22,356 nucleotides of DNA from assembly GCA_964549075.1 (NCBI GenBank), contig CAZJUB010000040.1:1-22356 (forward strand), written 5' to 3'. The translations under genes and the position numbers were made by a program. Source of the DNA: an uncultured archaeon (GTDB lineage: Archaea > Asgardarchaeota > Heimdallarchaeia > Heimdallarchaeales > Heimdallarchaeaceae). Numbering within the stretch: position 1 is the first letter of the stretch; the number at the start of each line of letters is the position of its first letter. The notes beneath the pieces are model-generated. The model was not told where the DNA came from. It was given only the letters and a program-made list of their open reading frames with translations, and searched no databases. This document shows, piece after piece, positions 19,170 to 21,337 of this stretch.

Positions 19170-20219
19170 ATGGAAGAGAAAGAAATCTCCTCAATTTCTA
19201 CAAGGAAAGATGATCACATTCTTTTGTGTCTTGAAAATGATGTTCAATATGATAGAATTACTAATGGCTTTGATGAGATTAAAATTGAACCTTCTCTTTT
19301 ACCTACTGTCTCTTCAGAAGAACTAAATTTATCTACAACATTCCTTTCTAAGGAAATTAATTTTCCTATAATTGTCTCTGGAATGACAGGTGGAAGTGAA
19401 AATGGAAAGGTGTTTAATGAAACCATTGCAAGAATTTGTAGTGAATTTCAGATTGGTATGGGAGTAGGTTCTCAAAGAGCAGCAATAGAAAATCCTGAAT
19501 TAATAGACACATACAAAGTTAGGCATATAGCACCAAATATCCCACTAATGGCAAATTTAGGAATAGCTCAATTTTTCAAAAATTATGGTCAAAAGGAAGC
19601 AAGAAAAGCTATCGCTATGATTGGCGCAGATGCTTTAGCTATACACATTAATCCTTTACAAGAATTTATTCAAGCTGAAGGTGATGATTCTTTTATAAAC
19701 ATCTCCTCAAAAATTCATGAACTTAAGAATGATTTTGAACTACCTTTGATAATCAAAGGCATTGGAACAGGTTTAACAAAATCCGATGCAAGAAAATTAT
19801 CGGAACTCAATGTTTATGCTGTTGATGTCGCTGGAGCTGGTGGAACAAATTGGTCTAAAATAGAATCTTATCGCAACGATCAAGTTAAGTACCTTTCTGA
19901 TAAATTTCTTAATTGGGGAATATCAACAAAAGATAGTCTTCTAAATATGGTTAGTTTCACAGAGAATAAAAATACTAAAATTATTGCTTCTGGAGGTATT
20001 TGGAACGGTTTTGATGCAGTAAAAGCATTACTTTTAGGTGCTGATTATGTTGCTTTAGCTTTACCGATATTAAGGGCTATTGGAACAGGGGGAATAGATG
20101 AATGTCGACAATTTCTCTCTTCATACATATTAGAGATGAAAGCTGTTATGACAATGTTGAATCTATCAGATTTAAGGGAATTAAAAAAAGAAAGGCATAA
20201 AATACTAGACAAGATATAA
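19170..20219 (+). CDS. fni: type 2 (FMN-dependent) isopentenyl-diphosphate delta-isomerase
   Basis: RKDDHI, GMTGG, GVGSQRAA, HINPLQE, GAGGT.W..IE, ASGGI motifs. Confidence 0.93.
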   Translation: MEEKEISSISTRKDDHILLCLENDVQYDRITNGFDEIKIEPSLLPTVSSEELNLSTTFLSKEINFPIIVSGMTGGSENGKVFNETIARICSEFQIGMGVGSQRAAIENPELIDTYKVRHIAPNIPLMANLGIAQFFKNYGQKEARKAIAMIGADALAIHINPLQEFIQAEGDDSFINISSKIHELKNDFELPLIIKGIGTGLTKSDARKLSELNVYAVDVAGAGGTNWSKIESYRNDQVKYLSDKFLNWGISTKDSLLNMVSFTENKNTKIIASGGIWNGFDAVKALLLGADYVALALPILRAIGTGGIDECRQFLSSYILEMKAVMTMLNLSDLRELKKERHKILDKI

Positions 20220-20221
20220 TT

Positions 20222-20278
20222 TCAGTCTAACTATGATTCATCATTGAGCGAAGCTCTCTGTAATGCCTTGTTCATCCT
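20222..20278 (-). ncRNA. box C/D methylation-guide sRNA, dual guide, predicted targets in 23S rRNA H69 and H70/71
   Basis: Minus strand: AGGAUGA (C) - ACAAGGCAUUA (11 nt) - CAGA (D') - GAGCUUCGCUCA - AUGAUGA (C') - AUCAUAGUUAGA (12 nt) - CUGA (D). Both guides are complementary to conserved LSU rRNA sequence (recalled). Confidence 0.82.
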
Positions 20279-20326
20279 TTTGTCTATTTTCAATTACACC
20301 TAATTATCTTTTGTGATTGAAATTTT

Positions 20327-20366
20327 ATTGGTAGATACTTGTCAAGATTGGTAGATACTTGTTAAG
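20327..20366. repeat. 20-bp tandem duplication (19/20 identical) spanning the stop codon of the M50 gene
   Basis: attggtagatacttgtcaag / attggtagatacttgttaag. Confidence 0.9.
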
Positions 20367-21337
20367 AATTTTGGATTTAATATAAATGACACTATAACTA
20401 AAGCCAAATTAATTCCAACAAGGATGAAAAATGCAACTTTACTCCATTTTAAGATTTTTTTGCCATCAAATTGCCATATTGGAATACAATTGAATAGAGC
20501 AATCAATCCGTTAAACTGAGCAACAAGAATGAAGATGTTAGGCACACCCCAAATCCCAGTCATAGCTAATGGTCCAACTAAACCTGCTACTGCGTATCCA
20601 CTGTAAGTCAATAAACCAATAATAAGACTTATTGTACCGATTACTGCATTTGTTGCTGGGCCTGCTACTGAAACTAATCCTATGTCTTTTTTATTCATCT
20701 GACGTTTCAAAGGAACTATGGATACAAAACCAGGTACTACTAAACCTATCCCAATAAGAAGTGTTAGAAATGTTAACATCAGTCCTCTGACCCATAAAAT
20801 ATAACGAGCAAATTGACCTTTTTTAATAGCTACAAACTTGTGTGCAAGTTCATGTGGCAAAAACGCTGTTCCAACTAAAATAGCTGCAATAGCAAAACCC
20901 CACCATCTATTTTTAGTACTTATAATAAATTGGTAGAAACCAAAAACAAGAACAATTAAAGCAAATCCAAAGAGGATGTCGAGAACTTCGTTACCCAATG
21001 AAAAAAGATCTCCAGAGGCTGTAAGACGTTTTTCAATGAACTCTTTCTTGCTCTTTTCATCAGGAAAATACACTTGTTCTTGAGCATTAGCTTGTTGTTG
21101 AGCTGCTTGTTGTGCAGCTTGAGCAACTCCATAAGCAATCCTACGCATGACTTCTTCGGGTCTAACTTGACGTTGTGCACCTTGTGCACCTTGTGCACCT
21201 TGTTGTGTCCCTTGTCTTAAAGAAGGACAATTATGTGCTGGGGCATCTCTGTGTTTCTGACAAAAAGAACCTCCACAGTAACGACAGTAGAATAAAATAT
21301 CGGCTTCAGTATTGCACTGGGGGTATTCACATTTCAT
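20342..21337 (-). CDS. AN1-type zinc finger fused to site-2 (M50) intramembrane metalloprotease
   Basis: C-x4-C...CRYC...FC..H...H.C AN1 pattern; HELAH; AGP..N; FNCIPIWQFDG. Confidence 0.9.
   Translation of the reverse strand: MKCEYPQCNTEADILFYCRYCGGSFCQKHRDAPAHNCPSLRQGTQQGAQGAQGAQRQVRPEEVMRRIAYGVAQAAQQAAQQQANAQEQVYFPDEKSKKEFIEKRLTASGDLFSLGNEVLDILFGFALIVLVFGFYQFIISTKNRWWGFAIAAILVGTAFLPHELAHKFVAIKKGQFARYILWVRGLMLTFLTLLIGIGLVVPGFVSIVPLKRQMNKKDIGLVSVAGPATNAVIGTISLIIGLLTYSGYAVAGLVGPLAMTGIWGVPNIFILVAQFNGLIALFNCIPIWQFDGKKILKWSKVAFFILVGINLALVIVSFILNPKFLTSIYQS
21173..21199. repeat. 9-bp in-frame tandem repeat (ttgtgcacc x3) encoding GAQ repeats
   Basis: Three perfect copies plus a degenerate flanking copy in the Q/A/G-rich linker. 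Confidence 0.85.

Follow-up and report, generated by a model that had tools for sequence, protein, structure and literature searches.

A dual-guide box C/D sRNA locus in a Heimdallarchaeaceae genome, with predicted targets in helix 69 and just before helix 71 of the large-subunit rRNA

Archaeal box C/D small RNAs (sRNAs) carry guides of 10-12 nucleotides (nt) and follow the fifth-nucleotide rule, by which the methylated target nucleotide, here called N+5, is the one paired with the fifth guide position upstream of a D or D' box (PMC7994747; papers are given by PubMed Central number). Dual guides directed to nearby ribosomal RNA (rRNA) sites are described in archaea, with helices 69 and 71 of the large-subunit (LSU) rRNA as methylation hotspots (PMC4644070, PMC6009581). 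Archaeal C'/D' motifs form an internal kink-turn (k-turn) or a k-loop according to the presence of a stem I, which the eukaryotic protein Snu13 requires and L7Ae does not (PMC8413462). Among eukaryotic small nucleolar RNAs (snoRNAs), yeast Am2256 is listed with snR63 and Gm2288 with snR75 (PMC5344495). Am2256 lies in the helix 69 loop, where Psi2258 corresponds to E. coli 1915 and human 3741 (PMC2794176), and from these offsets A2256 is the equivalent of E. coli A1913 and human A3739. Human A3739 is guided by U46 (SNORD46) through its D spacer. PMC7229835 describes U46 as an RNA of 98 nt in which C'/D' boxes cannot be recognised, and in about 90% of its homologues box D is followed by a C. Covariance models fail to link eukaryotic RNAs that carry identical guides to the A1913-equivalent site (PMC6461891). 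Here we analyse a locus with a guide to this same nucleotide, found on the minus strand at positions 20222-20278 of a 22,356-nt stretch of DNA (the window: contig CAZJUB010000040.1 of assembly GCA_964549075.1). A first-pass annotation of the letters alone had considered the case of an Asgard-type genome, and the assembly is indeed of the class Heimdallarchaeia, in the genus of the AB_125 metagenome-assembled genome (MAG) and the family of Ca. Heimdallarchaeum.

We consider it very probable that the locus encodes a dual-guide box C/D sRNA which directs methylation at the equivalents of E. coli A1913 and 1940, and that it belongs to an old archaeal family. The dual guides to helices 68-71 reported from seven archaea (PMC4644070) and from six Pyrobaculum (PMC6009581) likewise have four boxes, guides of 10-12 nt, nearby sites, a target in helix 69, and a short or absent terminal stem. 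The present RNA differs from them in its mesophilic Heimdallarchaeia host, in a 4-base-pair (bp) stem I where the few non-Asgard members of its own family seen here have a linker of 3-5 nt, and in the G at position 2 of its C box. U46 and snR63 share with it the predicted target nucleotide and the position of the guide upstream of box D, but U46 with its 98 nt, its lack of recognisable C'/D' boxes and its C after box D stands apart from an RNA of 57 nt that has canonical C'/D' boxes, a second guide, and an A after box D. A limited literature search turned up no paper on Asgard box C/D sRNAs, though such papers may exist.

Anatomy and conservation of the locus

All parts of the RNA are read on the minus strand, with coordinates given as window positions. 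From 5' to 3' the element consists of C box, 11-nt guide, D' box, 4-bp stem, C' box, 12-nt guide, and D box. The C box AGGAUGA (20272-20278) has G instead of U at position 2 of the consensus RUGAUGA, and is followed by the D' guide ACAAGGCAUUA (11 nt, 20261-20271) and the D' box CAGA (20257-20260), with one deviation from CUGA. The internal hairpin GAGC-UUC-GCUC (20246-20256) has its arms at 20256-20253 and 20249-20246 around the loop UUC. A single A (20245) stands directly 5' of the C' box AUGAUGA (20238-20244), after which come the D guide AUCAUAGUUAGA (12 nt, 20226-20237) and the D box CUGA (20222-20225), an exact match to consensus, with 2 nt between it and the convergent gene's stop codon. 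The range 20222-20256, which the first-pass annotation had singled out, is precisely the stretch between the D box and the hairpin's 5' arm, both included. A strict dual-box search of the whole 3.2-Mb genome returns this locus as its sole match, and the reversed control returns 0. A looser half-mer search for further box C/D sRNAs gives 33 matches against 5 in the control, mostly in coding sequence, and is too noisy to be of use.

The locus is conserved in the family Heimdallarchaeaceae. By BLAST in 47 genomes of the order followed by motif extraction, we find it in 28 of the family's 31 genomes, and the three genomes without it are 78-89% complete. In the 21 distinct sequences of the family, the GAUGA of the C box, the C and the GA of the D' box, AUGA.G in the C' box, the D box CUGA, and the D-guide core UCAUAGUUA are all invariant. 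The C box reads AUGAUGA or GUGAUGA in three genera (g3-g5), and over the 28 loci the D' box is CUGA in 24, CAGA in two, and CCGA and CGGA in one each. In one MAG (G018) the sRNA is present twice, in identical form, on separate contigs (C23:16549-16570 and C27:19846-19867), which could be either a true duplication or redundant contigs in the bin.

The first-pass annotation saw a GAGC/GCUC stem between D' and C' in place of a bare k-loop, and comparison within the family confirms it. The stem covaries as GAGC/GCUC, GAGU/ACUC and GUCU/AGAC, with 97.6% of cells paired in the 21 distinct sequences and compensatory changes in three of its four pairs; none of 500 shuffles reaches its covariation score, and control stems slid along the alignment are 29-51% paired. 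With this 4-bp hairpin between D' and C' supplying stem I, the internal motif is a full k-turn and not a k-loop. In the k-turn pairing scheme, stem I is followed by a 3-nt bulge and tandem G.A pairs, and the hairpin here has the same place, directly after D' and before the bulge and the G.A pairs. From the k-turn consensus (PMC8413462) we place the putative 3-nt bulge at A20245, A20244 and U20243. Both the k-turn and the k-loop forms are described in PMC8413462, so the stem is a variant of an established type, not a novel sort of motif.

Targets of the two guides

Both guides are complementary to neighbouring positions of the genome's own LSU rRNA. The window's genome (G000; G, C, L, f and g mark our genomes, contigs, loci, families and genera) has a single LSU rRNA gene, on contig C65. 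The D guide opposes LSU 2693-2704 and makes 10 contiguous Watson-Crick pairs at 2694-2703. Its N+5 nucleotide is A2697, paired U-A, which an ungapped alignment to the E. coli K-12 rrlB gene (2904 nt) makes the equivalent of A1913, in the loop at the tip of helix 69. We take this loop to be intersubunit bridge B2a. The first-pass annotation had named this very target, and its equation of the site with yeast Am2256 of snR63 (human SNORD46) follows from the offsets of PMC2794176, which also give human A3739 of U46. It had also taken guide position 2 to be mismatched, which is incorrect: the G at position 2 pairs with the C at the 1910 equivalent of the genome's own rRNA, and the unpaired positions are 1 and 12. 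The D' guide makes 10 contiguous Watson-Crick pairs with LSU 2721-2730, and its N+5 nucleotide is G2724, paired C-G, the equivalent of position 1940, which is a U in E. coli. The two target nucleotides are 27 nt apart, with the 1940 equivalent downstream, just before helix 71. Ten contiguous pairs arise in 57 of 5000 shuffles of the D guide and in 28 of 5000 of the D' guide, and in the tRNAs of the genome no pairing longer than 7 nt with the guides is found.

Guide and target covary between lineages. At guide position 2, the G/C1910 pair seen here is replaced by C/G1910 in the Njord-labelled genome G296 and in G146 of family f20, and at position 8 the U/A1916 of Asgard genomes is replaced by G/C1916 in a non-Asgard phylum (see below). 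Two side observations concern the rRNA itself. The LSU match (L001, G000:C65:1287-5521) is 4235 nt long against an archaeal model of 2987 positions, which leaves about 1.2 kb of extra sequence in insertions or expansion segments, and no 16S rRNA is found in the G000 assembly.

The two guides have fared differently within the family. The D'-guide stretch AAGGCAUU is kept in 21 of the 28 family loci. In the other seven (L020 and L022-L027, in genomes G015, G027, G022, G023, G029, G014 and G005) the D' spacer is swapped for unrelated 10-nt sequences, with no damage to the stem, the C' box or the D guide. In these seven loci the D' guide looks orphaned or retargeted, and since it has been replaced there, its function looks dispensable. 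As far as the alignments go, the D guide is the family's constant element and the D' guide the labile one. These observations bear on a different role for the RNA, that of a folding chaperone which holds helix 69 and the helix 71 strand during assembly, with methylation secondary or absent. Such a role has been proposed for dual guides of this type (PMC4644070, PMC6009581), and two guides 27 nt apart on one rRNA stretch would suit it. We judge it distinctly unlikely, given that both N+5 positions are Watson-Crick paired and that the D guide is invariant also in the seven loci that have no original D' guide. Invariance of the D guide where the D' guide is lost indicates that a single D-guide function is under selection.

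Under the preferred reading, that of a methylation guide, we predict expression, protein binding and methylation to proceed in the following way. L7Ae would bind the two k-turns, the terminal C/D and the internal C'/D', and Nop5 and fibrillarin would then assemble on the RNA. Both guides would pair with the nascent 23S rRNA, and fibrillarin would methylate the 2'-OH of the nucleotide facing guide position 5, counted upstream from either D-type box. The predicted marks are LSU A2697 by the D guide and LSU G2724 by the D' guide.

Neighbouring genes, promoter and protein machinery

The sRNA lies between a convergent gene of the flavin mononucleotide (FMN)-dependent dehydrogenase family (19170-20219, plus strand) and a co-oriented AN1 zinc-finger/M50 peptidase gene (20342-21337, minus strand). 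All 26 family-type loci that come from named records adjoin the FMN-dehydrogenase-family gene, the AN1/M50 gene, or both; the flanking proteins of these loci have diverged to 48-81% identity, and the location of the sRNA has been kept. Upstream of the C box, the element AATCACAAAAGATAATTA (20301-20318, minus strand), whose end is 22 nt 5' of the C box, resembles a B recognition element (BRE) and TATA box. The motif AATCAAAAAAGATAATTA(T/G) occurs 21-23 nt 5' of the C box in genera g1-g3, with a weaker likeness in g4-g5. Archaeal promoters have a characteristic spacing between BRE/TATA and start site. By this geometry the upstream motif is a putative BRE/TATA promoter that would start transcription near 20278-20282, at the C box or just short of it, and the sRNA appears to be transcribed from its own promoter.

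Two further features of the surroundings can be recorded here. A tandem direct repeat (two 20-nt units with one mismatch, window 20328-20367, plus strand) lies across the stop codon of the AN1/M50 gene on the minus strand, directly upstream of the promoter motif. A candidate distal stem, AGACAA/UUGUCU, pairing approximately 20279-20285 with 20206-20212, was rejected because of the predicted start position and because it is unconserved in relatives: its 5' arm falls at or before the predicted start, and its 3' arm is antisense to the last codons of the convergent gene.

As for the proteins, the genome assembly (217 contigs, 32% G+C, 89.7% complete) contains an L7Ae gene at 93.7 bits. The loop-9 stretch, by which L7Ae and Snu13 can be told apart, is LKVGSA in this L7Ae (L111:1447-1809, G000:C114) and IEVPCA in that of A. 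fulgidus, with a lysine in place of the archaeal glutamate. The loop is mostly archaeal in character.

Several findings weigh against a functional dual-guide sRNA at this locus. There is one departure from consensus in the C box (AGGAUGA) and one in the D' box (CAGA), the whole RNA folds no better than its shuffles (z = -0.24), and there is no conserved terminal stem, with 45.5% of cells paired in the wider alignment and a stem in only one, Thor-labelled, group. The D' guide, as described above, is exchanged in seven family loci. No Rfam family reaches its gathering score in the window, and a scan at E-values up to 10 gives only weak matches driven by the boxes (snoZ155 at 21.9 bits, sR20, sR11 and others). 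In the 89.7%-complete assembly, the best fibrillarin match scores 22.7 bits against a cut-off of 27, and there is no Nop match for Nop5. One assembly gap could account for both of these absences, because the nop5 and fibrillarin genes are adjacent in all five relatives searched and the assembly is incomplete. The alternative is a chance set of box-like motifs in an intergenic spacer from which no RNA is made, and the unremarkable fold energy and the fact that we found no RNA sequencing run covering the locus would agree with that. We regard it as extremely improbable in view of the conservation, the covariation, the promoter motif, the synteny, and a strict dual-box search that finds a single locus in the genome and nothing in the reversed control. 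On this comparative evidence we judge the locus to be a real gene: the RNA is a genuine, conserved and so far uncatalogued box C/D sRNA of a known class.

Distribution across archaea and relation to eukaryotic guides

Our exact-pattern scans used the Asgard form of the guide. They find the pattern in 40 of 400 Asgard genomes (control, 0), and among 185,579 species genomes they find 43 stretches, 39 of them Asgard. The four non-Asgard stretches are two bacterial chance matches, one chance match without a C box in a Bathyarchaeota-labelled MAG, and one real sRNA in a Thermococci-labelled MAG. Scans of two other phyla give 1 of 66 genomes in one and 2 of 401 genomes, against one control match, in the other. 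With one mismatch allowed, the count in Asgard rises to 101 of 400 genomes against 7 control matches, including 57 of the 86 genomes of a Thor-labelled family (f31). The exact pattern is thus what first made the guide look specific to Asgard archaea, and in the first-pass annotation the RNA was put forward as a candidate archaeal counterpart of a particular eukaryotic snoRNA. The exact pattern later proved insensitive. A covariance model built from 33 sequences of four Asgard families, and run with lax filters, recovers a homologue of 64 nt from all 22 genomes of family f5, where the pattern had given 0 of 22. It follows that other absences, in f4, most of f20, f19 and f12, in scans with strict filters or narrow patterns, are not evidence of absence.

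Bathyarchaeia are placed in Thermoproteota by GTDB. The phylum of the Bathyarchaeota-labelled MAG is not Asgard, and a search of 41 of its genomes with the covariance model gives 12 matches. Among them are six or seven dual-guide sRNAs with a D guide that departs from the Asgard form at one position. In four such genomes (G468, G495, G496 and G504) position 1916 of the rRNA is C and not A, and the helix 69 loop (L163-L166) is UAACUCUGA; Asgard genomes have A at 1916, as does the archaeal Rfam consensus, where the position is variable. In all four genomes the guide makes 9-11 Watson-Crick pairs with the genome's own rRNA and has A1913 at N+5. Once C1916 is allowed, the adapted guide followed by a D box goes from none to 59 of 241 sampled genomes of the phylum, against 6 control matches. 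We therefore reject Asgard specificity as an artefact of the pattern, and with A1913 guides in a non-Asgard phylum there is no special Asgard-eukaryote link of the kind first proposed. The first-pass annotation had itself listed such an outcome as counting against its proposal.

In all eight genomes compared (G000, G296, G146, G334, G468, G495, G496 and G504), the D guide selects A1913 on the genome's own rRNA. The D' guide selects the equivalent of G1945 on the genome's own rRNA in G296, G146, G468 and G495, and a near-identical D' spacer predicts the same target for f5 and f6, for neither of which we recovered rRNA over helix 69. In f5 itself, the LSU rRNA is found in fragments only (G058:C12 and G074:C8/C9; L147-L150). 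These match model positions 16-1422 and 2721-2973 and do not include helix 69, even on long contigs; assembly problems or a heavily interrupted rRNA gene may be the cause. In the window's family, the shared D'-spacer segment ACAAG stands five positions further from D', and the predicted D' target has therefore moved to 1940. The Thor-labelled versions (L065, L070, L086, L089, L093, L096 and L103) possess a terminal stem of 4 bp. Their D' box is degenerate, with CCUA, CUUA or GUUA for CUGA, and their C' box is mostly degenerate too (CGACGA), which recalls the weak conservation of C'/D' motifs in eukaryotic snoRNAs; for the D' spacer there is no clear match near helices 69-71. The sRNA of the Thermococci-labelled MAG B88_G9 (L079, G400:C82:1597-1618), from a third phylum, is compact and canonical, with a GGCC/GGCC terminal stem, a 3-nt k-loop linker, and the A1913 guide on the D' side; the insensitive pattern gives no other match in 66 genomes of its phylum. 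Taking the several Asgard families and the non-Asgard phylum together, the sequences indicate that the sRNA family is old and widespread in archaea.

The form of the internal motif varies over this range. Over four Asgard families taken together, 86.9% of the helix is paired, and three of the four pairs show compensatory changes. The 39 distinct Asgard sequences that were parsed have linkers of 8-18 nt, and RNAfold predicts a hairpin in 30 of them; the remaining nine are four parsing errors and five linkers with a 2-bp GC..GC helix from family f5. The three parsed non-Asgard sequences have linkers of 3-5 nt, and by eye so do L151, L162 and the Thermococci-labelled RNA. We saw the stem in Asgard members of this sRNA family and not in the few non-Asgard members parsed; a stem-closed C'/D' limited to Asgard versions is a lead at most, from one sRNA family and a small outside sample.

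How the family relates to the eukaryotic guides is a separate matter. The guide is functionally equivalent to that of snR63/U46 as judged by target, and this part of the first-pass annotation stands, with the same target nucleotide and the D position; the likeness does not extend to the SNORD46 model or to the architecture. The SNORD46 model (RF00218) scores at best 15 bits on the whole genome against a gathering score of 40, elsewhere than at the locus, and SNORD46 is not listed for the locus in a cmscan at E-values up to 10. The Giardia GlsR7 consensus in Rfam (RF02476) has the same 9-nt core in the same register, two further bases, and CUGA, but it scores 9.4 bits against a gathering score of 75 (E = 9.1), with only the C' box, the guide core and the D box aligned. 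The view that the RNA is the Asgard orthologue of SNORD46/snR63, marking an inheritance from Asgard archaea to eukaryotes, could draw on the shared target and D position, on the GlsR7 core and register, and on the 39 Asgard stretches among the 43 of the early scans. We find it very improbable. The apparent specificity was an artefact, as shown by the non-Asgard phylum, by the four of four verified cases in it, and by G400 of a third phylum; the models give no score (SNORD46) or next to none (GlsR7) at the locus; and the size of U46, its lack of C'/D' and its C after box D are not common to the present RNA. The likeness of the guides is forced by the target, as the first-pass annotation itself had cautioned, and even within eukaryotes a covariance model failed to link RNAs with identical guides (PMC6461891). 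Orthology is not demonstrable, since the similarity amounts to about 16 nt dictated by the shared target, and common descent is neither shown nor excluded.

The second guide adds a further comparison. Taking G1945 as yeast G2288 by a constant offset of 343, which comes from one paper's table and not from a yeast sequence, Gm2288 of snR75 coincides with the D' target of f25, of g43 in f20, and of two non-Asgard genomes (and, by prediction, of f5 and f6). With this offset, the four modified yeast nucleotides of the region (C, A, A, G) fall on matching bases of the genome's own rRNA. The D' target of the window's RNA differs in lying 5 nt upstream, at 1940, which would be yeast G2283, and the yeast table in PMC5344495 shows no modification there. 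One way to read these coincidences is deep vertical inheritance, in which a dual guide to helices 69 and 71 predates the split of Asgard archaea and Thermoproteota and its functions survive as snR63/U46 and snR75. A D guide to A1913 in every lineage examined, a D' guide to G1945 in several of them, yeast methylation by snR63 and snR75 at the matching positions, and the fit of the four modified bases all agree with it. We think it unlikely. Helices 69-71 are a hotspot where guide convergence is documented (PMC4644070), nothing outside the guides is comparable, the offset between yeast and E. coli comes from that single table, and the move of the D' target to 1940 in the window's family means that targets drift.

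Independent convergence is the explanation to which we incline, by a modest degree: archaea and eukaryotes would each have recruited A1913 guides for a useful methyl group at the subunit interface near the A-site tRNA, with no guide inherited. Convergent guide evolution is reported in PMC4644070, and short guides evolve easily, as the shift or loss of the D' guide within one family illustrates. Against it stand the same nucleotide and register in at least three archaeal phyla, yeast, human, Giardia and a nucleomorph, and a partner guide that in several archaeal lineages targets a second site methylated in yeast.

A bolder proposal, to which we attach little probability, joins these threads. 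An A1913/G1945 dual guide that predates the Asgard/Thermoproteota split would have passed to the first eukaryotes and split there into snR63/U46 and snR75, and in the Asgard line the k-loop would have turned into a stem-closed k-turn, the form that Snu13 requires. If this were true, the Asgard RNAs would be architectural intermediates. A 2'-O-methyl group at the A1913 equivalent sits at the subunit interface, adjoining the A-site tRNA, and is kept in yeast, human, Giardia and a nucleomorph. That A1913 guides are common in several Asgard families and in another phylum argues that the mark, and perhaps the guide, predates eukaryotes, with the caution that a shared target is no proof of an Asgard-specific link. 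The family offers a test case for the origins of snoRNAs, with one invariant guide and one labile second guide that in some lineages targets another site methylated in yeast and in others has moved or been lost. What is of interest is the depth of the A1913 mark, and in many lineages of G1945 too, from archaea to eukaryotes, together with a possible change of the internal motif on the Asgard side.

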